Shown here: piece after piece, positions 9,993 to 32,000 of the stretch
Position numbering within the stretch: the first letter of the stretch is position 1
How the letters are laid out: each line of letters starts with the position of its first letter
Source of the DNA: Candidatus Methylomirabilis limnetica
GTDB lineage: Bacteria > Methylomirabilota > Methylomirabilia > Methylomirabilales > Methylomirabilaceae
NCBI RefSeq assembly: GCF_003044035.1
Contig: NZ_NVQC01000013.1
Location: 120,001 to 152,000 of the forward strand
Direction of reading: 5' to 3'
DNA: 32,000 nucleotides
Translations under genes and position numbers: made by a program
Notes under the pieces: generated by a model
The model's input: only the letters and a program-made list of their open reading frames with translations
Told to the model about the DNA's origin: nothing
The model's database searches: none

Positions 9993-11360
9993 TCAGCTCT
10001 TCTCGCGGATCTGTAGTTCTTTGATCAGGCGGGCAAGGTCGGTCCGCTGCAGGCCAAGGGCGCTCGCAGCCTTCGATTGATTGCCTCCTGAGCGGTACAG
10101 GGTCTCCCGGATGACCTGTCGTTTGTAAGCCACCACAGTTTCATGGAAGTCGCGAGGCGCTTCTCCAGCAGGCGACTCCGGTGCGCCGGCAAGGACAGTC
10201 AGTGGGAGGTCTTCCGAGGTGATCCGATCGCGGGTACTCAGGACAACGGCCCGCTCGATAAAATTCGCCAGCTCTCTCACATTGCCTGGCCAGTGGTAGT
10301 GTCGCAGTAACTCCCATGCGTCCGGAGTGATCTCCTTAATTCGCTTTCCCATGCGGTCGCAGTATTGGGTGAGGAAGTGATTGGTGAGGGAGACAATGTC
10401 CTCCAGGTGGTCTCGGAGTGGGGGGAGCGAGACGGTAATGACATTGAGACGGCGGTAGAGATCCTCACGGAACAACCCCTCGCGGATCGCCTTGTCCATG
10501 CGGCGATTCGTGGCGGCAACGAAGCGGAGGTCGACCCGTATCGGCCTCGTCCCGCCGACCCGCTCAAACTCGTGCTCTTGAAGGACACGGAGCAGCTTTG
10601 CCTGTAGGTGCGGCTTCAGATCGCCGATCTCATCGAGGAAGGCCGTCCCGCCGTCGGCCAGCTCCAGCTTCCCGCGCTTGCGCTGGTGCGCGCCCGTAAA
10701 GGCTCCGCGCTCATGCCCGAACAAATCGCTCTCAAGCAGATCTTCCGATACTGCCACGCAGTTCACCACCACAAAGGGCTGATCCCGCCGCTGGCTCCAT
10801 TGATGGATAGCTCTCGCGAATACCTCCTTGCCGGTTCCAGTCTCCCCCTGCAGGAGAATCGTAGAACTTCTGGCCGCCGCTCGTTTGGCGGCCTCGATGG
10901 CATTCAGGATCGACGGGCTGTGCCCGATGATCGGCCGATCTTGTCCCCTGACCTCCCCTGACAGTAGGAGGTTGTCCCGCTTCAACGCCTCCCGTTCTAG
11001 CGCCTTGCCGATAACCACTTCCAGATGCCCCGGGCTAAACGGTTTGGTCAAGAAGTCGTACGCGCCGGCCCGCATCGCCTCCACGGCCTTATCGATGGTG
11101 CCATACGAGGTCATTACGATAGTTGTCGTCTCGATCCCCTCATCGCGGATCGCCTTCAGCACCTCGAGGCCACTCTTCTTCGGCATCATAAGATCAAGGA
11201 GGGTGATGGTCAGCGAGTTCTCTCTCAGCCGCGTCAGCGCCTGCACACCATCTTCTGCCTCCACGACCTCGAACCCCATGGCCTTCAGCCGATCACGCAC
11301 CACCTCCCGAATGTCGGGGTCATCGTCCACGATCAGGATCTTGCTATGACTGGGGATCAT
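9993..11360 (-). CDS. sigma-54-dependent Fis-family response regulator (NtrC/AtoC type)
   Basis: 455 aa. REC domain (ILIVDDD...LLDLMMPKKSG), AAA+ Walker A GETGTGKE, sigma-54 contact loop GAFTGA, and a C-terminal Fis-type HTH (AASALGLQRTDLARLIKEL). Confidence 0.92.
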   Translation of the reverse strand: MIPSHSKILIVDDDPDIREVVRDRLKAMGFEVVEAEDGVQALTRLRENSLTITLLDLMMPKKSGLEVLKAIRDEGIETTTIVMTSYGTIDKAVEAMRAGAYDFLTKPFSPGHLEVVIGKALEREALKRDNLLLSGEVRGQDRPIIGHSPSILNAIEAAKRAAARSSTILLQGETGTGKEVFARAIHQWSQRRDQPFVVVNCVAVSEDLLESDLFGHERGAFTGAHQRKRGKLELADGGTAFLDEIGDLKPHLQAKLLRVLQEHEFERVGGTRPIRVDLRFVAATNRRMDKAIREGLFREDLYRRLNVITVSLPPLRDHLEDIVSLTNHFLTQYCDRMGKRIKEITPDAWELLRHYHWPGNVRELANFIERAVVLSTRDRITSEDLPLTVLAGAPESPAGEAPRDFHETVVAYKRQVIRETLYRSGGNQSKAASALGLQRTDLARLIKELQIREKS

Positions 11361-11448
11361 TGTGATTGCTCCGCGTCAGCGAGGGTTGTCGTTACATTGG
11401 TCTGCGCCAGGGGCCGCCTGGGCAGGGTCATGTAGTGCCCCCCTGAAA

Positions 11449-11545
11449 GTCATTGGGGACGACGCGCTGCATGAGCGACACGCACTCGCGCCGAAGTCAC
11501 TTCCGCATACGGCGTTGTCTCTACCATCTGGTTCTCCCCATGAGG
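11449..11545 (-). pseudogene. decayed 3' fragment of a hepT-like gene
   Basis: 11449-11500 aligns by eye with the 3' end of the intact hepT (15636-15687), with a few mismatches and one 1-nt indel. Weaker similarity continues up to the edge of the repeat. No intact reading frame. Confidence 0.45.
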
Positions 11546-11735
11546 CTAACAGATATTAGCCGACAGTTCTTAGGCGGACTCTACGATATTGGTGTGTGCA
11601 ATGCAACACGATACTCGTGACACACTCCTTGGAACACTCTTGAACAAAACGCTTGCACGGGAACCCACTGTTGGATAGCCTGTTCGTCAGCTAGGGATGA
11701 TACCCAATGCCTCAGGTGTGGACCCGTCGCCCCCT
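11546..11735. repeat. ~190-nt repeat, copy A
   Basis: Starts CTAACAGATATTAGCCGACA and ends CGCCCCCT. Shares conserved blocks with copies B (15422-15612) and C (16408-16597). Confidence 0.9.
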
Positions 11736-11893
11736 TGCCCCAGATTCCCGGTGGCCAGCAGGGTACTTGCAGGTGGCCATAGACTCTTTTCTCCAGGCGC
11801 TGACAAACGATTCGGTGGTTGCTGTGGTAGAGGCCGACCGGTTGCTCGGTGGGGCCGTCAGGTGTTGGCCATAGCAACGGAGGTGAGAGACTG

Positions 11894-12376
11894 ATGCGGC
11901 GAGCGTTGACCATCGCGGGCTCCGATTCCGGCGGTGGAGCGGGGATCCATGCCGATCTGAAAACGTTCACAGCCCTTGGTGTGTTCGGGACATCGGCGAT
12001 TACGTCGGTTACGGCCCAGAACACGATCGGCGTCCATGGGGTGCACGATCTGCCGCCGGAGTTCGTAGGGGGCGCCAGATCGACTCGGTCCTTGACGATA
12101 TCGCCATCGACGTGGCCAAGACCGGGATGCTTTCGAGCGCAGCGATCATCGAGGTGGTCACGGCGAAGGTGAAGGCGCATGCGATCCAGCGGTTGGTAGT
12201 CGATCCGGTGATGGTGGCCAAGAATGGGGCGCCGTTACTTCGGTCTGATGCCGTGAACGCGCTCATTGAGCGTCTGCTGCCCCTTGCCCTTGTTCTCACG
12301 CCGAATGTGCCGGAGGCTGAGGCGCTCACAGGGCTGACGATCACTGAGCTCAATGGGATGCGTCAGGCGGCGCGGC
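11894..12376 (+). pseudogene. thiD: thiD 5' fragment, 3'-truncated and frameshifted
   Basis: [25 protein letters not shown]... parallels the intact thiD. There is a 2-nt insertion at about 12067-12072 (GTAGGGGGCGCCAG vs GTCGGGCGCCAG). The reading continues in another frame (ORF 12112..12393). Homology stops at about codon 160. Confidence 0.85.
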
Positions 12377-12406
12377 CTACAACAGGCGGATAGAAAGGTG
12401 GAAGAC

Positions 12407-13837
12407 ATGAATGTGCGTTCAATCCTGACAATTGTAGCCACGCTCGCGCTGGCGTTACCGGCACAGGCGGACGATGAAGGCGTCGCGCTGACGATCTACA
12501 ATCAGAGCTTCGGGGTCGTGCGCGAGAAACGAGGCGTCGAGATCAAGGACAAGCTTGGCGTGGTCCGGTTCACGAACGTGGCGGCGCAGATTGACGGCAC
12601 GAGCGTGCAATTCAAATCGCTCACCGATCCCGCCGCGCGTGTGCTGGAGCAGAACTACGAGTATGACCTCGTCTCCGCGGACAAGCTCCTGCACAAATAC
12701 ATCGACAAACAGATCGCGGTGCTCACCAAGGACGGCTCGCGCTATTCCGGCAACCTGATGAGCTTCGACGCGAACCAACTCGTCATCCGGCAGTACGGGG
12801 AGAAGGGCGAGATCGTGATGGTGCAGCGCGGCGACAACGTCAAAGACATCCAGTTTGGCGCGTTACCGGAAGGATTGATTGCGAAGCCGACGCTGGTGTG
12901 GAAGCTCGCGACAGAGAAACCAGGCACGCATCTCGTCGAGGTCGCCTATCAGACCGGCGGCTTGAACTGGCAGGCCTCTTACAACGCCGTGCTCAACGCC
13001 AAGGATACCGGGCTGGACCTCGGCGGCTGGGTGACAATCAACAACACGTCCGGCGCGACCTATAAGGACGCGAGGCTCAAACTTATTGCCGGAGACGTGC
13101 GCCGGGTCCAGCCGCCGTCTCGCGCATACGCCATAAAAGGCGCGATGGCGATGGAAGCGGCCGCAGCGCCACAATTCGAGGAAAAAGCGTTCTTCGAGTA
13201 TCACCTGTACACGCTGCAACGGCCCAGCACGGTCGCCGACAACCAAACGAAGCAGATCGAATTGCTTAAGGCGGCGGACGTACCGGTCAAGAAGGTGTTG
13301 CTCTACGAGGGCGCGCCGCAATTCCGGTTCTACGGTGGACTGCACACGTCGGCGGAGTATGGCAGCCAGGAGTTCAACAAGAAGGTCAACATCATCATCG
13401 AGGTCAAGAACTCGAAGGACAATCACATGGGCATGGCACTGCCGAAGGGCAAGGTGCGACTCTACAAACGCGACGAGGCCGATGCGGCGCTGGAATTCAT
13501 CGGCGAAGACGAGATTGATCACACGCCGAAGGACGAGACGATCAAGCTGCACATCGGCGACGCGTTCGACGTCGTCGGCGAACGCAAGCGCACCGATTTC
13601 CGCGTGGACAGCGGCCGGCACGTCATGACCGAGAGCTTCGAGATTCGCATTCGCAACCACAAAGACGAACCCGTGGACGTGCTCGTCAAAGAGACGCTCT
13701 ATCGCGGGAACAACTGGGAGATCACCGCGTCGAGCCACAAGTGGACCAAATTCGACTCCGGCACCATCCACTTCCCGATCACCGTAGCCAAAGACGGCGA
13801 GCGGGTCGTGACGTACACGGTGAGATATACGTGGTGA
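12407..13837 (+). CDS. secreted DUF4139-like protein
   Basis: AAAGGTGGAAG RBS precedes the ATG at 12407. Signal peptide MNVRSILTIVATLALALPAQA/DD. The N-terminal LTIYNQSFGVVREKR...IDGTSVQF pattern resembles DUF4139/DUF4140 proteins from memory. The CDS call is strong; the family call is moderate. Confidence 0.75.
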   Translation: MNVRSILTIVATLALALPAQADDEGVALTIYNQSFGVVREKRGVEIKDKLGVVRFTNVAAQIDGTSVQFKSLTDPAARVLEQNYEYDLVSADKLLHKYIDKQIAVLTKDGSRYSGNLMSFDANQLVIRQYGEKGEIVMVQRGDNVKDIQFGALPEGLIAKPTLVWKLATEKPGTHLVEVAYQTGGLNWQASYNAVLNAKDTGLDLGGWVTINNTSGATYKDARLKLIAGDVRRVQPPSRAYAIKGAMAMEAAAAPQFEEKAFFEYHLYTLQRPSTVADNQTKQIELLKAADVPVKKVLLYEGAPQFRFYGGLHTSAEYGSQEFNKKVNIIIEVKNSKDNHMGMALPKGKVRLYKRDEADAALEFIGEDEIDHTPKDETIKLHIGDAFDVVGERKRTDFRVDSGRHVMTESFEIRIRNHKDEPVDVLVKETLYRGNNWEITASSHKWTKFDSGTIHFPITVAKDGERVVTYTVRYTW

Positions 13838-14060
13838 TGTCTGAGGCGTTGAAGCTTTTAGCCGAGTGAAGCGAGTCGCCGCTCACCCAAGGCGGTCTGG
13901 CAAGACTGGTGAAGTCCAGCCAGTCCAGGGTCGCCAAGATGGAAGCCGACGATCCCTCGGTGTCTTGGACCTGCTCATTAGAACCCTTCTGGCGCTGGGA
14001 GCCTCGAGTCGCGAGATAGCGAGAACCTTCGCGCCCTCTCGTCGCGCCACGGCGGCCTAA
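13837..14060 (+). pseudogene. XRE-family HTH (antitoxin-like) pseudogene
   Basis: The ATG overlaps the DUF4139-like stop (TGATG). It reads MSEALKLLAE, then an in-frame TGA (13867-13869), then SESPLTQGGLARLVKSSQSRVAKMEADDPSVS. A 1-nt frameshift near 13962 is needed to continue LDLLIRTLLALGASSREIARTF. Confidence 0.6.
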
Positions 14061-14134
14061 CGCTCCGCTTCATCTGCGGGCGCTCACGCCTCATCAATGG
14101 CGAGCCGTCAACTGCAAGCGGTAGTTAGGTCTTT

Positions 14135-14461
14135 TCACGAAAACAGTTCCGCCAAAGTCGAGAAAACCGCCGACTGTGTTTGCGGCCCAACTTTCCCCAA
14201 TCTTTTCACCAATCTTGATTTGTCGACAGTTCGAATCTGGTCGAGAACAATCTGGGCTTGCTTGCCTTGGGAAACACAAGAAACCCGAGAGGGATAATCT
14301 CGCCCCTTCGTGGTCATTGGGGCAACTATGACTGTGGCAATGAAACGGTTTAATTCGTCCGGCGAGATGATCAGACAGGGGCGACTCTTCTTGATCTCGC
14401 TTCCAACAGTAGGGTCCAGGTTTACCAGATAGACTTCAAACCGTTTCACTTCCATTCCCAT
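14135..14461 (-). CDS. mazF: MazF/PemK-family endoribonuclease toxin
   Basis: 108 aa: KRFEVYLVNLDPTVGSEIKKSRPCLIISPDELN...VAPMTT...VLDQIRTVDKSRL. The start overlaps the mazE stop. Confidence 0.9.
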   Translation of the reverse strand: MGMEVKRFEVYLVNLDPTVGSEIKKSRPCLIISPDELNRFIATVIVAPMTTKGRDYPSRVSCVSQGKQAQIVLDQIRTVDKSRLVKRLGKVGPQTQSAVFSTLAELFS

Positions 14462-14703
14462 TCTTCCTTATCCCAGGAAGTCTGGCTAGCCGCATCCGCA
14501 TCCAACAACTTGTCATCGCCCCTTGCCGCCATGGCCCGGAACTTTTCCGCCCAGCCTTCGCGCGGCTTTTTCACTGAGCGAATGATAATCTGGCGGTCCC
14601 CAACCTGAAGCTCAACCTCGCCACTCAGATGGGTCTGCTCCAACACCACTTTGGGGATTCTAATGCCTTGGGAATTACCGATGCGAACGATGCTTGCCTT
14701 CAT
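14446..14703 (-). CDS. mazE: AbrB/MazE/SpoVT-family antitoxin
   Basis: 85 aa: MKASIVRIGNSQGIRIPKVVLEQ (SpoVT-AbrB fold signature). GGAGG RBS. Overlaps mazF by 16 nt. Confidence 0.88.
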   Translation of the reverse strand: MKASIVRIGNSQGIRIPKVVLEQTHLSGEVELQVGDRQIIIRSVKKPREGWAEKFRAMAARGDDKLLDADAASQTSWDKEEWEWK

Positions 14704-14733
14704 CGAATACCACCTCCAACCAACCTTGATATA

Positions 14734-14767
14734 ATTACAATGTAATCACATCGTACTCTTTCGTCAA
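14734..14767 (-). promoter_or_regulatory. putative mazEF promoter with overlapping palindromic operator
   Basis: On the - strand: TTGACG (plus 14762-14767), 17-nt spacer, TACATT (plus 14739-14744). The palindrome ATTACA-A-TGTAAT (14734-14746) overlaps the -10 box. The site lies about 30 nt upstream of the mazE start. Confidence 0.45.
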
Positions 14768-14787
14768 TAGTGAAATAGGCCCAACGT

Positions 14788-15411
14788 TCACGTCAACCGG
14801 CGCGCGCCGCTCTTGCGCGCGTCCGTGTTGGGCGTGCTGTTAGGGTGCCCTCGCTGCTCAGTGGGCTTGCCGACAATTGAAGGCGTCGACGCAAAGTCCC
14901 AGTTGTCTTCATACACCGAAGCCAGCGGTGCAGGGACGGCGATCGGGCGATCATTGGGAAGACCGATGCGAAATAGACGCCGGTCGCTGGTGCGGTGCGC
15001 CGGGTTGTCTTTGAGCCATAGTTGATGCTCGTCTCGCACGTATTTGGCAACGACGACACTCGGGACGATAAAAAATCGCAACGCGTACTTCGACAACTCA
15101 GTCCGGCTCGAATTGATGTGCACGAAGCAGTAGAACAGGTTCGGGTCAATGACGCCTTCGTGCTTGGCGCTCATCTGCCAATCGGTAACGAATGTTTCAA
15201 AGAGCCTTGAATCACTGTCGCGGGTGCGAGTCTCGAGGTTTGTCTTAACCTCGACTTCGTAACGTGCGCCCCTGCGGGGGTCGAGCACCAGGATGTCGAT
15301 GTTCTTCGTATGACCCAGAGTCATGCCTGCGTCGTAGCCCCGCAGTGTCAATTGCGATAGGACGGCAAATTCTCCCGCGAGCCCTACTGAATTGGGTGGA
15401 ATTCGCGCCAT
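14788..15411 (-). CDS. hypothetical protein with a PD-(D/E)XK nuclease-like N-terminal core
   Basis: 207 aa with an ATG start. GLAGEFAVLSQLTLRGYDAGMTLGHTKNIDILVLDP..GARYEVEVKT fits the G..GE...(D)...(E-x-K) layout of Hjc/PDDEXK-type nucleases. C-terminal tail is low-complexity and basic. No obvious SD sequence. Confidence 0.6.
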   Translation of the reverse strand: MARIPPNSVGLAGEFAVLSQLTLRGYDAGMTLGHTKNIDILVLDPRRGARYEVEVKTNLETRTRDSDSRLFETFVTDWQMSAKHEGVIDPNLFYCFVHINSSRTELSKYALRFFIVPSVVVAKYVRDEHQLWLKDNPAHRTSDRRLFRIGLPNDRPIAVPAPLASVYEDNWDFASTPSIVGKPTEQRGHPNSTPNTDARKSGARRLT

Positions 15412-15421
15412 ATTGAGTGCC

Positions 15422-15612
15422 CTAACAGATATTAGCCGACACTTCTTGGACGGGCTTTACGATATTGGTGCGTGCTATACCAACACGATACTCGTGACAC
15501 ACCCCTTGGAACATCCTTGAACAAAACGCTTGCACAGGAACCCCCTGTTGGATAGCCTGGTCGTCAGATATGGATGATACCCAACACCTCAGGCGTGGAC
15601 CTGTTGCCCCCT
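15422..15612. repeat. ~190-nt repeat, copy B
   Basis: Same ends and blocks as copies A and C. By my hand alignment it is about 88% identical to A. It lies ~10 nt from the start of the 207-aa ORF and 11 nt from the hepT stop. Confidence 0.9.
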
Positions 15613-15623
15613 CCAACGCGGTG

Positions 15624-15986
15624 TTAGCCCACCTCGTCATTGGGGGCGACGCAAGGCATGAGCGACATGCACTCGCGCTGAAGCACCGATACATCGTGTT
15701 CGACGATCGCCCACACGACAGCGTCATCCACGGTCGGGTACTCGTGGGTAAGCTGGTTGCGGAAGTCCACGATCCTCCGTGCCCGCGTGATTGCATCGAA
15801 GGCATCCGGTGCGACTCGGCCGAGTGCCGCGGCCGCCTCTCCGATGATGATGAACTCGCGCTCGACCGAAGAGCGGACGAGGCGATTGCTTTCATACCCG
15901 GCGAGATTAAGGTCTCGAACCGCGACGGTGATCGCGTCGCACGACTCGATGATGTCGGCCAAGTAGGCACGCGCATCACGCGGCAT
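15624..15986 (-). CDS. hepT: HepT (DUF86) HEPN-domain toxin
   Basis: 120 aa with the Rx4HxY motif in FRNQLTHEY. Overlaps the upstream mntA by 11 nt. Confidence 0.88.
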   Translation of the reverse strand: MPRDARAYLADIIESCDAITVAVRDLNLAGYESNRLVRSSVEREFIIIGEAAAALGRVAPDAFDAITRARRIVDFRNQLTHEYPTVDDAVVWAIVEHDVSVLQRECMSLMPCVAPNDEVG

Positions 15987-16284
15987 AAAGCATCTGCCTC
16001 GTACGCTCGATGTCGCGGGCGATGTACGGGTTTTTGATGGCCCCCACCATGACCAAGTCGATCTTCAGGCCTAATACGGTCCGGAGTTCTTCCAGCATGC
16101 CGAAGTAGGCCTCGACTCGAGCGTACGGCTCCATCGGCCCGAACTCGACCAACAGGTCCAGGTCGCTCTCATCCGGTTTGAAGTCATCATGCAAAGCCGA
16201 ACCGAACGCGTACAGCCGTACCACACCATGGCGCACGCAGGCCGCAGCTATCGCTTGGCGATTGTTCTCGAGAACACCGATCAT
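15976..16284 (-). CDS. mntA: MntA-type nucleotidyltransferase antitoxin
   Basis: 102 aa with the minimal NTase motif FGSALHDDFKPDESDLDLLV (GS...DxD). GGGAGA RBS 6 nt upstream of the ATG. Confidence 0.88.
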   Translation of the reverse strand: MIGVLENNRQAIAAACVRHGVVRLYAFGSALHDDFKPDESDLDLLVEFGPMEPYARVEAYFGMLEELRTVLGLKIDLVMVGAIKNPYIARDIERTRQMLYAA

Positions 16285-16346
16285 GACGTGTCTCCCACGT
16301 TCATCGTACCTACAGCGGGTGAGGCGCGCACCGGCCAGGAACGATC

Positions 16347-16407
16347 CGCGCCGAAGTCACTTCAGTGTGCGGCGTTGTCTCTACCCTCTGGTTCCCCCCC
16401 GATGGGG
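16347..16407 (-). pseudogene. second decayed hepT-like fragment
   Basis: CGCGCCGAAGTCACTTC..CGGCGTTGTCTCTACC.TCTGGTTC matches 11487-11545. It lies between repeat C and the mntA upstream region. Confidence 0.4.
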
Positions 16408-16597
16408 CTAACAGATATTAGCCGACACTCCTTGAATGGACTCTACGATATTGATGCATGTAAGGCAACACGATACTCATGACGCGCCAATTGGACAACT
16501 TTTGAACAAAACGCTTGCACAGGAAGCGACCGTTGGATAGCCTGTTCGTCAGATATTGATGATACCCAACAACTTAAGCGTGGACCAATCGCCCCCT
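16408..16597. repeat. ~190-nt repeat, copy C
   Basis: Same ends and blocks as copies A and B. By my hand alignment it is about 82% identical to A. Confidence 0.9.
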
Positions 16598-16836
16598 TTA
16601 ACCGAGATCCCCGGTGGCCAGCATGGTACTTGTAATTGGCCATGGGGTCTTTTCTTCAGGCGGAGACCAACGATCCGGCGGTTGCTGTGGCAGAGGTCGA
16701 CCGGATGCTGGATGGGGCGGGCAGTCTCCGGTGGAGTACGTGGACGATATCCAGAGGACGTCGGCCGGGCAAGCACCCGTGCGTGGTTTGCTATGTCCCG
16801 CCAGTATAGTGTCCCATAAGTCCCTTTACAGTGATT

Positions 16837-16951
16837 GTCATTCTGGGCTTGACAAGCCTGCCCCGTACTTGATACGGGGGAATCCAGTCTTTCTGTGCTG
16901 GATTCCCGCTCCCCGCTTAAGGCATGCGGGGACAAGCTTCGCGGGAATGAC
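16837..16951. repeat. palindromic MITE-like element inserted in the thiD leader
   Basis: GTCATTC...GAATCCAG arm (16837-16887) and its inverted partner CTGGATTC...GAATGAC (16898-16951). Each arm contains its own CCCCG..CGGGG hairpin. The element is absent from the paralogous leader at 11736-11893. Confidence 0.75.
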
Positions 16952-16980
16952 GGCTTCGGTACAACGGAGGTGATAAACCG

Positions 16981-17775
16981 ATGCGGACGGCGCTCACGAT
17001 AGCAGGCTCCGATTCCGGGGGTGGAGCGGGGATCCAGGCTGATCTGAAGACCTTTGCCGCCTTGGGTATCTTCGGGACATCGGCGATTACGTCGGTCACT
17101 GCCCAGAACACGGTCGGTGTCCAGGGGGTGTACGATCTGCCGCCGGAGTTCGTCGGGCGCCAGATCGACTCGGTCCTGGAAGATATCCACATCGACGCGG
17201 CCAAGACCGGGATGCTTTCGAGCGCAGCGATCATAGAGGTGGTCGCGGAGAAGGTGAAGGCGTATGCGACCATGCGGCTGGTGGTCGATCCGGTGATGGT
17301 GGCCAAGGGTGGGGCGTCGTTACTTCGGCCTGATGCCGTGAAGGCGCTCGTCGAGCGTCTGCTGCCCCTTGCCCTTGTTCTCACGCCGAATGTGCCGGAG
17401 GCTGAGGCGCTCACAGGGCTGACGATCACCGAGCTCAATGGGATGCGTCAGGCGGCGCGGCAGATCCACGGCCTCGGCCCGAGGTACGTTGTCCTCAAGG
17501 GGGGCCACCTTGGCGGTCGCGCGATCGATCTCCTGTTCGACGGAAGTCACTTCACGGAGTTGGATGCCGAGCGGATCGATACGCCGCACACCCACGGGAC
17601 CGGATGCGTCTTCTCTGCGGCCATCACCGCGGAGCTGGCCAAGGGCAGTCCGGTTCCAGAGGCAGTTGCCATCGCCAAGCGCTTCATCACGGCTGCAATC
17701 CACTATGGGTTTCGGCTTGGCAAGGGATTCGGTCCGACCGATCCGATGGCGGCCGCAAGGAGCCTCACGCCATAA
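16981..17775 (+). CDS. thiD: bifunctional hydroxymethylpyrimidine kinase / phosphomethylpyrimidine kinase
   Basis: 264 aa: [59 protein letters not shown] upstream. Confidence 0.92.
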
Positions 17776-22498: not shown

Positions 22499-25400
22499 TC
22501 AAATACCACCGTGGCCCCCCTTTGCTAAAAGGGGGGGTGGGGGGTTTTCGTAATCGGCCAGATAGCGGGCCACCGTCGCAAGCAGGAGATCCTTCTTCAG
22601 CGGCTTCGTGAGGTAGTCATCCATTCCTAGCTGGAGACACTGCTCTCGATACCCCGCGATTGCATGCGCTGTCAACGCGATAATGGGCGTCCGTCCTACG
22701 TTATGCTCGCGTTCCCATGCCCTGATGGTTCGAGTGGCCTCAAACCCGTCCATTTCCGGCATCTGCACGTCCATCAGAATGAGATCATAGCGGGCCTGCC
22801 GCACGGCGCTCACTGCTGCTACCCCATTTCCCGCAATGACGACCCAGTACCCAGCCTTCTCCAGAATCCTTCTCACCAGGTTCTGATTGTCCACGTTGTC
22901 CTCGACCAGCAGGATGTGTTGCTGGATGGTGGGGCGCATTGCCTTCGGGATCGCCGGCTCAGCGAGTGTCACCGCTTCCTCCGGTCTTCGTAGCAGCCCC
23001 ATCAACATATCGAAGAGCTTCGACTGTTTGACCGGCTTGGTCAGGACCACCGTAATCCCCAGTTCCTCCCTTACGCCGGCGAGCAGCCCCTCCCAGGACG
23101 AGAGCATCACCAACTTGATCCCCTGGAGCTTTGGATCGTGCCGGATGGCTCGTGCCACGTCTACCCCATCCATGTCCGGCATCTGATGATCCAGGATGAC
23201 GACCTGAAAGTGCGTGTGCGACGTACGCAATAACGCCAAGGCCTCCTCCCCCCCGGATGCTTCCCCTACGGAGGTGCCCCACGCTTGCAGCGTCCTGCGC
23301 AGGATCAGGCGATTGGTCGGATTGTCGTCCACCACCAACACCGCCACGTCGCGCAGATCGGGATAGACCTCGCCCTCCACCCGCAGTATCTCAGCTTCAG
23401 GCTCCGCCAAGGATACCGCAAAATCACAATGGAAGGTGGACCCCTTTCCGATCTCGCTCTGCACCCATATCCGCCCGCCCATTAGCTCGACCAGGGACTT
23501 TGAGATACTCAACCCCAATCCGCTTCCCCCGAATCGCCGCGTCGTGGTGGAATCCGCCTGAGCGAATGGGTCAAAGATCCTGGCTTGTTGATGCGTGGGA
23601 ATGCCGATCCCGGTATCGGCCACCGAAACATGGAGCCCAACTCGTCCAGGCGCGGCGGCAGCGGCCTGCTCAACTTGAATGGCTACCTCCCCGCGCTCCG
23701 TGAACTTGATGGCATTGCCCACGAGGTTCACCAACACCTGCCTCAGGCGAGTGGGGTCGCCGAGCACTCGAGATGGCAGCACCGGATCCACATAGCACGT
23801 CAGCTCTAGCCCCTTTTTCTGGGCCCGGATGCTCAGGACCTCGGCCACACCTTCCACGACTTCACGCAGGTGAAAGCCCACATCCTCAATGACCATCTGG
23901 CCCGCCTCAATCTTGGAGATATCGAGAATATCGTTAATGACCGTCAGCAGCGCTTCAGAGGACGACAGCACGACCTGCAAGAACTCTCGTTGCTCCGCAG
24001 TAAGCGCGGTGTCGAGGGTGAGCTCCGTCATACCAATGACGGCGTTGAGCGGGGTCCGAATCTCGTGGCTCATCATGGCCAAGAACTCACTCTTGGCGCG
24101 GTTGGCCGTTTCGGCGGCGGACTTCGCCTGTTGGAGCTCTATCTCCGCCCGCTTGCGCTCTTCAACCTCTCGTCTCAGCTCTTCGGCATGACGTTGCACT
24201 GAGTTGTACATGCGGCTATGCTCAATGACAATGGCCACCTGGTCAGCCAGAGGGAGCAGACGCTCAATGTCTCGTGCGGAGTACGTCCCGGCCGTCAAAC
24301 TATCGAGGAAGAAGACCCCCACTGCCCTCCCTCCAACCAGAAGCGGGAGCTCAATGGAGGACCGGACGCCCTCCTGCACCATATACATCTCATCGTGGAA
24401 CCTGGCCTCCTTTACCATGTCGCGCACAAGTCGAGGCTCCCTCTGGGTGAGCATCCACTCGATCGCCGTGTCGTTCGTCTTTGGCCAGCTCTGTCCCTGG
24501 TAGGCGGCGAGTGGGGGGTTCGCCACGGAGTAGGCCACCCGGAGCTGGTCGACTTCCGGGACGATCACCCCCAGCCGGTCATACGGGACGTAGGACTCCA
24601 CCGCCTGGGCAAACGTCCCAAAGACCTCGTTGAGTTCGAGCGATCGGTTCAGCAGTCGGCCCAGCGTGAAGAGCGCCTCCCACCGCGCGGCGTGGTCCTT
24701 CGTCGTCTCATACAATTCGGCGAGATCGGCGTGGGCGGCTCCTAGGTCAGCGTCTGCCTGCTTGCGGGCGGTGACGTCCTGTTTGACCGCGATGTAGTGG
24801 GTGATCTGACCTCGGCTGTCTCGGACGGGGGCGATGGCCTGCTCCTCGGTGTAGAGGCCCCCATCCTTACGCCGATTAATTATCTCCCCGTGCCAGACCT
24901 GTCCGGCGAGAATCGTTGCCCAGATCTGCTGGTAGAACGCGGTGTCGTGCTGGTCTGACTTGAGGAAACGCGAATTTCGGCCGAGCATCTCTTGGGCTGT
25001 GTAGCCGGTGAGCTGGGTGACGGCGGAATTGACCCAGGTGATCGTTCCCTCTCGGTCAGTGATCATGATGCCGTTGGCCGCCGCCTCCAATGCAGTGTGT
25101 TGCAGGTGCAGTTGAGCTTCTGCCTGCTTACGGGCGGTGATGTCGCGGATCGCGCTCATGGCGATACCGCCATCTTTGGTGGGATAGTGACTCAGCTTGA
25201 TGTCAACGGGAAACTCACGCCCATCCTTGCGCACGGCGTATAATTCCAGACCCACCCCCATGGGTCGCGTCACAGGGGTGGTGGTGTAGGTAGCGCGATG
25301 CTCTGTGTGCTGGCTGCGGAGACGCTCTGGCACCAGCATCTCAACTGGTGCGCCCAGCAACTCTTGCTGCGCATAGCCGAATATCCTCTCCGCTTCTTCA

Positions 25401-31260: not shown

Positions 31261-31369
31261 CTCTCACTCCACCGCAGTAACGATCTCCCCACCGACTTTC
31301 CTCCATGACCGCTTTTACCATAGCATACGGCCCTTGGACTCCGCTACAGTAGATCACTCCTCATCACCC

Positions 31370-31408
31370 AATCCCCCCCTTTCAAAAAGGGGGGCGAGGG
31401 GGGATTTG
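31370..31408. repeat. C/G-run hairpin element
   Basis: AATCCCCCCC-TTTCAAAAA-GGGGGG-CGA-GGGGGG-ATT. Same family as 22515-22550. Confidence 0.6.
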
Positions 31409-31542: not shown

Positions 31543-32000
31543 GAGCCAGTGAGTGGCATAGTCTGGCTTTAAACTTTCATACCCAAGAGCGCCCTATATC
31601 CACATGGCTGCCAACACACTACGACGATCTATACCCATGTAATGAACCGAAGGGACAAGGGAATCCACAGCCCAGTCGATAGGCTCGAATTTAGCTAGGG
31701 CAGTTCGCTGTGGGAAGGTTGAATAGGCTGACCTGGGTGCAGCGTTTGCCGTCATCAGGATTTATAAGAATGTATTGCTAACTACGCGATAAGGCTGTAC
31801 TATTTGCTCTGACCTAAAAACGGTTGGTCTGGATATACTGGTCAGCATACATAATAGTTGGGCAACATGTACCCCAGTGTTGTCTGACTCTTTAATCAAG
31901 GGGAAGGGAGAGCAATATGTTTTGTCTAAAGTGCGGCAAGGAAAACTCTAACGACGTAAAGTTTTTCGTCTTGACCGTGTAGAAAGATCTGTGGTGTACT

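Follow-up and report, generated by a model that had tools for sequence, protein, structure and literature searches.

What is a repeat of ~190 nt that stands three times within 5 kb of one another, each time directly upstream of a minus-strand gene? The question is raised by a 32,000-nt stretch of the Candidatus Methylomirabilis limnetica genome (contig NZ_NVQC01000013.1, positions 120,001 to 152,000; hereafter the window, with its first letter as position 1). An initial annotation made from the sequence had left the repeat unclassified and had offered three candidates: a promoter-bearing element, either mobile or located at a cassette junction; a site of recombination; and a small structured RNA. 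The element is of a known kind, though its arrangement is unusual: it is very probably the front end of a decayed chromosomal integron, consisting of the attI recombination site, a promoter region and the first ~15 codons of the integrase gene intI. Taken together, the cassette-junction and recombination-site proposals were essentially right, in that the repeat combines an attI with a divergent promoter region, the promoters themselves being predicted. The initial annotation had also named a clear match to a known attC, insertion sequence (IS) end or RNA family as grounds for refutation, and in spirit this is what was found, as the element belongs to a known system.

Three copies of a probable integron platform

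The three copies, here called platforms, are as follows.

11546–11735, plus strand: copy A; attI, divergent promoter region and start of an intI pseudogene; homology with copy C runs to 11861 and then through thiD'
15422–15612, plus strand: copy B; the intI remnant stops after ~17 codons (15570–15621) and is joined to the 3' end of the hepT cassette
16408–16597, plus strand: copy C; runs on into an intI remnant up to 16724

Direct-repeat alignment recovered the copies where they had been placed before, at 82–88% identity (A–B 88.5%, A–C 81.6%, B–C 83%). All three are direct repeats of ~190 nt, and a 19-mer (TTGAACAAAACGCTTGCAC) and a 20-mer (CTAACAGATATTAGCCGACA) within them each occur three times in the window and approximately zero times in shuffled sequence. 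No inverted repeat involving the element was found in the window; its ends are not complementary and no stem joins them. The sharply defined ends reported for the repeat hold on the left (CTAAC) side, where homology is lost abruptly in all three window copies and in five copies from other assemblies, but not on the right. The right end (...GCCCCCT) is abrupt in B only, which is truncated there, while in A and C homology extends ~130 nt further through the integrase remnant and resumes in the 5' end of thiD.

Under the proposed explanation, each repeat would be the platform of a chromosomal integron with a decayed integrase gene. The order on the plus strand would be an attI crossover within GGCTAA-N6-TTAGCC, ~145 nt with divergent promoter motifs, and the intI start with ~15 codons, and G|TT would have been the point at which cassettes entered, to be read on the minus strand in the direction away from the platform. 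The integrase promoter PintI would once have driven intI, of which a remnant is left, and probably now reads into thiD. Copies A and C would be the ends of an old duplication or recombinational stacking of a unit (hepT-mntA-attI-intI'-thiD 5' part), and B would be a further platform copy cut at approximately codon 17, such that B and C bracket mntA-hepT in an attI-gene-attI arrangement.

Occurrence in other genomes and metagenomes

Proteins encoded in the window are identical to entries of Candidatus Methylomirabilis limnetica, and the window has a match in contig NODE_42 of ERZ4201063. Exact-word scans covered 185,579 species genomes (the source genome was not among them) and 241 million metagenome records. 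The exact 19-mer occurred at six loci in the genome collection, five by chance and one genuine (L003), and at five loci in the metagenome collection, where L010 and L012 are genuine. Additional loci were recovered through thiD (L021–L024) and through an integrase protein, P0002, that is introduced below (L014). The element stands upstream of thiD or of a thiD fragment in L003, L012 and L021–L024; the L010 contig stops inside the integrase remnant and the L014 contig before the plus-strand neighbour. Outside the window it is therefore always found upstream of thiD where the plus-strand flank is known, which speaks against the independently mobile element that had been suggested. Each of L021–L024 has a single copy in the order minus-strand cassettes, attI, intI' and thiD, and these contigs can be assigned to Methylomirabilis from their near-identical thiD.

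Three observations concern these contigs. L003 (DATMXF010000064.1) is labelled 'Patescibacteria group bacterium' and has a platform and thiD 80–90% identical to those of Ca. Methylomirabilis, such that the contig is likely mis-binned. In the related Methylomirabilis contigs L018–L020, an IS630-type (DDE_3) transposase gene lies directly upstream of thiD, and a BLAST search with the repeat found no platform copy in the ~1–1.6 kb upstream of thiD. All contigs from L018 to L024 begin at most ~1.6 kb upstream of thiD, as would be expected for a variable or repeated region.

The crossover point of attI

The architecture of an integron comprises intI, its promoter PintI, attI, the cassette promoter Pc and attC-bearing cassettes read divergently (Cury et al. 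2016, PMC4889954). According to that paper, most integrons have an attI whose sequence is unknown, and it can therefore not be used in searches (PMC4889954). In the window the following cores were identified.

11544–11561, no strand assigned: attI core of copy A, GGCTAA-CAGATA-TTAGCC, an inverted box pair; crossover G|TT on the minus strand, between 11550 and 11549
15420–15437, no strand assigned: attI core of copy B, same core as A
16406–16423, no strand assigned: attI core of copy C, same core as A

The position of the crossover emerges from an alignment of eight copies, the three in the window and those of L010, L021, L014, L003 and L012, which together represent six genomic contexts. Homology across all eight starts exactly at AAC, the G|TT of the minus strand. 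The four bases that precede AAC are variable and RYYY-like (GGCT, CCCT, GGCT, GCCT, ACCT, GCCT, ACCC and ACCC), and outward of these lies unrelated DNA with six different first cassettes. An abrupt loss of homology at G|TT beside a variable RYYY is the signature that attI × attC recombination would leave: as the crossover falls between the G and the TT of a GTTRRRY box, the RRRY is supplied by each incoming cassette. The site thus has the two features by which an attI is recognised, a position beside the 5' end of intI and a cassette junction at the G|TT of a GTTRRRY box. The distance from the crossover to the former intI start codon is 143–145 nt, and CTAACAGATATTAGCC is the longest invariant run across six full-length copies.

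The GCTAA-CAGATA-TTAGC stretch had previously been described as a hairpin. The sequence is present as described, but its role is reassigned: by comparison with attI1, GGCTAA-CAGATA-TTAGCC is here presumed to be the simple site of an attI, with its two integrase-binding boxes in inverted orientation. A TTAGGC or TTGGAC at 11570–11575, a few bases further inside, would presumably be the additional TTRRRY-like direct repeat of attI1. An attempt to place the attI of L025, an intact family member, was set aside; the candidate TGCCAAC lies ~130 nt upstream of the start codon, and with a single copy the crossover cannot be placed.

The integrase gene remnant

In its final ~45 nt the repeat contains the beginning of an integrase pseudogene, and the homologous part in a large IntI subfamily is the N-terminal extension. 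This had gone unrecognised in the initial annotation, as had the attC-like sites described below.

11693–11861, plus strand: intI pseudogene remnant, copy A; start codon now AGG, a frameshift, a 36-codon deletion and a second deletion (tblastn and alignment)
15570–15621, plus strand: intI remnant, copy B; ATG and ~16 codons (MDDTQHLRRGPVAPSN), then the hepT cassette junction
16555–16724, plus strand: intI pseudogene remnant, copy C; start ATT, an in-frame stop and deletions as in A (tblastn)

An open reading frame (ORF) runs past the repeat in L010, and a search with this ORF returned two proteins, P0001 and P0002, both with an integrase SAM-like N-terminal domain. P0002 is encoded on L014 straight after a repeat copy, and its ATG lies inside that repeat. 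When P0002 was compared with the window by tblastn, it matched copy C at 16555–16686 (E = 1.25e-6) and copy A at 11731–11823 (E = 5e-4). The match to copy B (15570–15617, 16 residues) has an E-value of 0.39 and is not significant alone, so the intI assignment of B is taken from the DNA alignment of the copies. The same 36-codon deletion is shared by A, C and L010, and L021 is colinear with them at the DNA level.

An exhaustive search for homologues of P0002 yielded 267 proteins, mostly fragments, and among them the full-length 516-aa P0026, which scores 443 bits against the NCBIfam model TIGR02249 'integron integrase' (cut-off 265). Many of the ~500-aa relatives of P0026 are named integron integrase by their source databases. 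On the related contig L017, this N-terminal piece recurs with a C-terminal fragment behind it, and the latter matches both TIGR02249 and the structure of Vibrio cholerae IntI4 (2a3v, E = 2e-32), including the RRHH of the IntI-specific insertion. The IntI-specific extra domain is thus present on L017 and absent beside the window repeats, where the window holds the 5' remnant only.

Elsewhere in the window, 31 residues encoded at 31594–31686 on the plus strand (LYPHGCQHTTTIYTHVMNRRDKGIHSPVDRL) are similar to the very end of the C-terminus in integron integrases (tblastn E = 0.001 for both P0026 and the L017 fragment). This may be the trace of a second tyrosine recombinase, also decayed, at ~15 kb from the array.

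Cassettes and attC-like sites

On the cassette side of the platforms, the minus strand carries the following units.

11449–11545, minus strand: first-cassette remnant of copy A; the final ~50 nt of hepT joined to a cassette leader like that of C
15622–16411, minus strand: first cassette of copy C; 127-nt leader, mntA 16284–15976, hepT 15986–15624 (Pfam NTP_transf_2 and HepT-like)
14779–15425, minus strand: first cassette of copy B; 14-nt leader, a 207-aa ORF (15411–14788) of no assigned function and a 55-nt attC-like site, 14833–14779
14055–14778, minus strand: second cassette of copy B; mazE 14703–14446, mazF 14461–14135 and a 76-nt attC-like site, 14130–14055

The site at the end of the 207-aa ORF (14833–14779) has the form GCCCAAC...GTTGGGC and a DNA fold of −20.9 kcal/mol (z −2.8). 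The site after mazEF (14130–14055) has the form ACCTAAC...GTTAGGC, with pairing of R'' with R' and of L'' with L' (CCGCTT/AAGCGG). The hepT stop codon lies inside an R''-like GGCTAAC, and the remainder of that attC is missing.

The strict scan by which sites were sought, a home-made heuristic rather than the covariance model of IntegronFinder, asks for RYYYAAC...GTTRRRY with ends that pair and a DNA fold that is stable. Across ~70 kb it called six distinct sites, of which five lie within ~0.7 kb of a platform copy on its cassette side and the sixth (L010, 260–324) ~1.6 kb from one; no site was called away from the platform copies in these ~70 kb. The same scan gave two matches in ten shuffled 32-kb windows, or 0.2 per 32 kb. 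By this heuristic, R''-L''...L'-R' sites with cassettes that point away from intI are present in the window and also in L010, L021, L003 and L012. Again by the heuristic, the window contains attC sites clustered without an integron-integrase (a CALIN), with two attC-like sites 650 nt apart and no intact integrase in the 32 kb. A 51-nt candidate 'attC' at 15579–15629 passed relaxed criteria only, has a weak fold (−8.8 kcal/mol) and was treated as a chance match.

The first cassette differs among the loci.

Copies A and C, minus strand: mntA-hepT leader
Copy B, minus strand: 207-aa ORF
L010, minus strand: 225-aa ORF
L021, minus strand: 188-aa ORF
L014, minus strand: Mrr-type endonuclease
L003 and L012, minus strand: 201/205-aa ORF

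In five of these six, the first cassette starts 12–24 nt past the crossover; the mntA-hepT leader is 127 nt long. The cassette content (MazEF, MntA-HepT, Mrr and ORFs without an assigned family) is typical of chromosomal integrons, and a search of the cassette ORFs with PADLOC and Pfam named nothing beyond the toxin-antitoxin pairs, Mrr and one sub-threshold match to DUF6308. In L003 the attC is overlapped by an ORF for a 2-thiouracil desulfurase, which is perhaps not a cassette.

The initial annotation had truncated hepT fragments abutting both A and C. What abuts the CTAAC end in both is a shared cassette leader of 53 nt (11487–11539 = 16347–16399, 89% identity), and not hepT; a genuine hepT 3' fragment does exist, but in A only and ~50 nt from the repeat (11449–11496 = 15636–15683, 88%). 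Leader and hepT in the first cassette of copy A seem to have been fused through loss of the DNA between two short repeats, GTGACTTCGGCGCG and GTGCTTCAGCGCG. A possible platform remnant beyond this hepT fragment (11340–11440) was rejected, as local alignment was no better than for shuffled sequence. Adjoining the attC-like site at 14055–14130, a plus-strand frame at 13866–14050 has a translation (..LTQGGLARLVKSSQSRVAKMEADDPSVS..) that reads as a fragment of a helix-turn-helix (HTH)/XRE antitoxin, and is probably a decayed cassette gene.

Divergent promoter-like motifs

The ~145 nt between the crossover and intI carry a promoter-like motif on each strand.

11578–11606, minus strand: putative Pc, copy A; TTGCAT-N17-TAGAGT
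16440–16468, minus strand: putative Pc equivalent, copy C; TTGCCT-N17-TAGAGT
15454–15483, minus strand: putative Pc equivalent, copy B; TTGGTA-N18-TAAAGC, weaker
11653–11681, plus strand: putative PintI, copy A; TTGCAC-N17-TAGCCT, its end separated by 11 nt from the former intI start codon downstream
15530–15558, plus strand: putative PintI equivalent, copy B
16515–16543, plus strand: putative PintI equivalent, copy C

Both conservation patterns had been noted before and were found again: TTGCAC-N17-TAGCCT on the plus strand of all three copies, and TTGCAT or TTGCCT-N17-TAGAGT on the minus strand of A and C, with a weaker version in B. From their positions and sequence we infer that the plus-strand motif would be PintI and the minus-strand motif Pc. 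The minus-strand motif, located 28 nt inward of the crossover, is oriented towards the cassettes, and the TA...T of its putative −10 hexamer is kept in seven of eight copies. First-cassette leaders of 12–24 nt have no room for a promoter of their own, which argues that these cassettes would depend on an upstream one in the platform. On the other side, three different deletions have removed intI (one in L003 and L012 copy 1, one in L012 copy 2 and one in A, C and L021), and each has spared the plus-strand motif upstream of thiD, which suggests that PintI now serves thiD.

Between the divergent motifs lies the palindrome CACGA-TAC-TCGTG (11607–11619, 15485–15497 and 16469–16481). It is intact in A, B and L010, nearly so in L003, and mutated in C, L021, L014 and L012. 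Speculatively, the integron promoters may once have been controlled from it as an operator, by an SOS-type repressor for instance.

Origin of the three copies

Two thiD sequences flank the locus.

11895–12369, plus strand: thiD' pseudogene fragment; ~158 codons, frameshifted, a duplicate of the 5' part of intact thiD, seen as two split Phos_pyr_kin ORFs
16981–17775, plus strand: intact thiD; downstream of platform C and the platform's conserved neighbour in related genomes

Copies A and C bound a duplicated unit that runs from the hepT 3' end through mntA, attI and intI' to thiD codons 1–158 (15636–17454 versus 11449–12369). Compared with C, the unit of copy A is without most of mntA-hepT and without a ~250-nt stretch, 16725–16975, that resembles a miniature inverted-repeat transposable element (MITE). 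Located between A and C are DUF4139, a pseudogene of HTH type, the two cassettes with attC-like sites and platform B, and in attI(C)-mntA-hepT-attI(B) the two crossovers are 985 nt apart. It had been proposed that B could be only a leftover of a further duplication; this stands in part, as B is a truncated extra copy of the same platform. A right junction of B made by IntI at GTTGGAG was considered and rejected, as the 5 nt before it still match intI at four of five positions and the break adjoins the R''-like GGCTAAC. The junction looks illegitimate.

Copy A shares 90% identity with L010 and L003, 88% with B and 82% with C; for the 5' part of thiD', the identity is 87% with L021 and L003 and 84% with the resident thiD. 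The copies are thus as diverged from each other as from those of other genomes, which argues against a recent duplication in place. From these identities, the pattern would fit repeated thiD-anchored recombinational import (Campbell-type integration) better than a recent tandem duplication. In three lineages, truncated 5' fragments of thiD were seen at the opposite edge of the variable DNA (window 11895–12369, L012 8243–8415 and L003 3441–3603), which suggests repeated integration events anchored in thiD.

The ~250 nt between the intI remnant of copy C and thiD (16725–16975) are absent from A and L021 and partly present in L003. They contain the inverted repeats GGAATCCAG...CTGGATTCC and GTCATTC...GGGAATGAC, with a sub-threshold match to the Rfam family Transposase-2 RNA at 16859–16912 (E = 0.28), and look like a small MITE or repetitive extragenic palindromic (REP)-like element. 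Further along the window, G-rich palindromes (CCCCCCTTT..AAAGGGGGG) at 22506–22548 and 31367–31407 occur in both orientations and may be REP- or terminator-like elements.

Weighing the alternatives

Several findings weigh against the integron reading. No integrase catalytic or IntI-specific domain was found in the window beside any of the three copies or between the repeats and thiD, and with no catalytic domain surviving the link to IntI rests on the N-terminal extension domain and the related loci. The attC-like sites in the window number only two and were called by a home-made heuristic; the one at 14130–14055 passes only the relaxed scan, which also gives chance matches, and mntA-hepT is without a complete attC. 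The right-hand junction of B (15621/15622) is not a canonical recombination site. Both sets of promoter hexamers match the sigma-70 consensus at ~6–7 of 12 positions, and a sigma-70 consensus scan called neither motif. Between A and C, the platform (82% identity) is no better kept than the neighbouring pseudogene (82%) or thiD (84–93%), such that selection on the whole element is not demonstrated. The identification could also be right and the locus a pure fossil, with inert leftovers of segmental duplication around thiD that play no role as promoters or recombination sites and neighbours that use their own signals. The death of all three intI copies, the weak hexamers, the platform identity just cited and the decay of CACGA-TAC-TCGTG in four of the copies would all agree with this, and the 127-nt leader of mntA-hepT could hold its own promoter. 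We nonetheless consider a pure fossil unlikely, if a possibility to be taken seriously: no run that is invariant in six copies exceeds the attI core in length, every independent intI deletion spared the plus-strand motif upstream of thiD, and five different first cassettes begin too close to the crossover to have space for a promoter. Further, A, C and L021 have the same two inactivating intI deletions (L010 has the 36-codon one), yet their first cassettes differ and all are joined exactly at G|TT. One reading of this last observation is that IntI supplied in trans still loads these attI sites and that 'platform plus toxin-antitoxin' modules move or stack as units; alternatively, arrays may have been swapped between Methylomirabilis lineages by thiD-anchored homologous recombination, which would leave thiD 5' fragments behind. 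That orphan attI platforms stay in use after the death of their own integrase is, on this evidence, rather improbable.

The remaining explanations concern what the repeat itself might be. A structured small RNA, encoded on one or the other strand and regulating the adjacent genes, was among the initial proposals and would account for the alternation of conserved blocks and variable patches and for the two small hairpins. The Rfam and covariation checks proposed with it were negative, however. Rfam covariance models, including that of the thiamine pyrophosphate (TPP) riboswitch expected upstream of thiamine genes, gave no match at gathering scores in the whole window, and a search of 11300–17100 at E-values up to 10 gave none within the repeats. 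RNAalifold consensus folds of six copies over 156 nt were weak on the two strands (−13.9 and −14.5 kcal/mol) and showed no covariation on either, the covariation terms being unfavourable (+0.78 and +1.17) with one or two compensated pairs and many broken ones. With one 'hairpin' being the attI inverted repeat and the last ~45 nt being coding remnants, a small RNA is very improbable. To an equally slight degree of probability we would hold that the repeat is an unusually long attC and not an attI, even though it starts with an RYYYAAC-like box, copy B has GTTAGCC 11 nt past its other end, and chromosomal integrons can have highly conserved attC repeats. The absence of complementary ends and of a joining stem and the weak consensus folds count against an attC, and the strict scan passed over the repeat while it called short and different attC sites nearby. 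In A, C, L010, L021 and L014, moreover, the far end runs into the intI frame, which is the position of an attI. Least probable, and by a reasonable estimate close to negligible, is a transposable element end or miniature (IS end or MITE) that targets sites upstream of genes. Several copies in 5 kb, a sharp end and toxin-antitoxin pairs nearby would be in keeping with such an element, but the repeat takes part in no terminal inverted repeats, its flanks show no sign of a target duplication, one of its ends is an integrase gene start, the exact-word scans of the species-genome and metagenome collections gave only three other loci (L003, L010 and L012), and outside the window the position upstream of thiD is constant wherever the plus-strand flank is known.

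Significance and comparison with known integrons

With the decayed integron as the preferred reading, the region from 11.4 to 16.7 kb is to be annotated as a degenerate integron with cassettes, rather than as unrelated toxin-antitoxin genes and hypothetical ORFs. The analysis provides a comparatively defined attI sequence for the IntI subfamily with a long N-terminus, and the three platforms, together with the repeatedly seen 5' fragments of thiD, make up a natural experiment, if a small one, in the way cassette arrays go on changing after loss of the integrase. The current understanding of integrons is unchanged by these findings.

The locus is most readily compared with the sedentary chromosomal integrons, such as the Vibrio cholerae superintegron. 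Shared with these are the divergent arrangement of intI and cassettes, a crossover at G|TT in a GTTRRRY box that has an inverted box beside it, attC-hairpin cassettes that are read away from intI and include toxin-antitoxin pairs and ORFs without assigned function, and promoters (putative here) in the short intI-attI interval. The locus differs in that a 5' remnant of intI is all that is left, the platform occurs three times within 5 kb, the integrase belongs to a subfamily with an N-terminal extension of ~100 aa, and the host is a member of NC10 (Ca. Methylomirabilis), a genus for which a literature search found no paper describing an integron. With the attI1 simple site of class 1 integrons, the two inverted boxes around the G|TT crossover are shared, whereas there is no sequence similarity outside the core boxes and the binding boxes are predicted.

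A second comparison is with CALIN elements, for which the loss of intI is one proposed origin (Cury et al. 2016, PMC4889954). In that survey, which used the C-terminal domain, recognisable intI pseudogenes were found near only 15 of 279 CALIN elements (Cury et al. 2016, PMC4889954). Unlike those elements (PMC4889954), the present locus retains its attI and the 5' end of intI, which makes an origin by integrase decay visible. As the C-terminus of the integrase is gone, a test for the C-terminal domain would miss this locus and software would report it as a CALIN; an intI 5' remnant with attI can thus reveal the origin of a CALIN by integrase decay where the C-terminal test finds nothing.

The arrangement of platforms B and C also has a counterpart. 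According to Gonzales Machuca et al. (2026, PMC12901181), attI-gene-attI architectures in class 1/mobile integrons are recombined by IntI1. With the Delta-attI/attI-gene-attI cassettes described there, the present locus shares a gene unit (here mntA-hepT) between two attI copies. The differences are that the downstream attI here comes with the whole promoter region and 17 intI codons (~200 nt) and not as a short fragment, that the outer junction here is non-canonical, and that the present case is chromosomal and has a dead integrase. Set against the described cases, the features that stand out here are the surviving attI with a 5' remnant of intI, the three platform copies and the host lineage.

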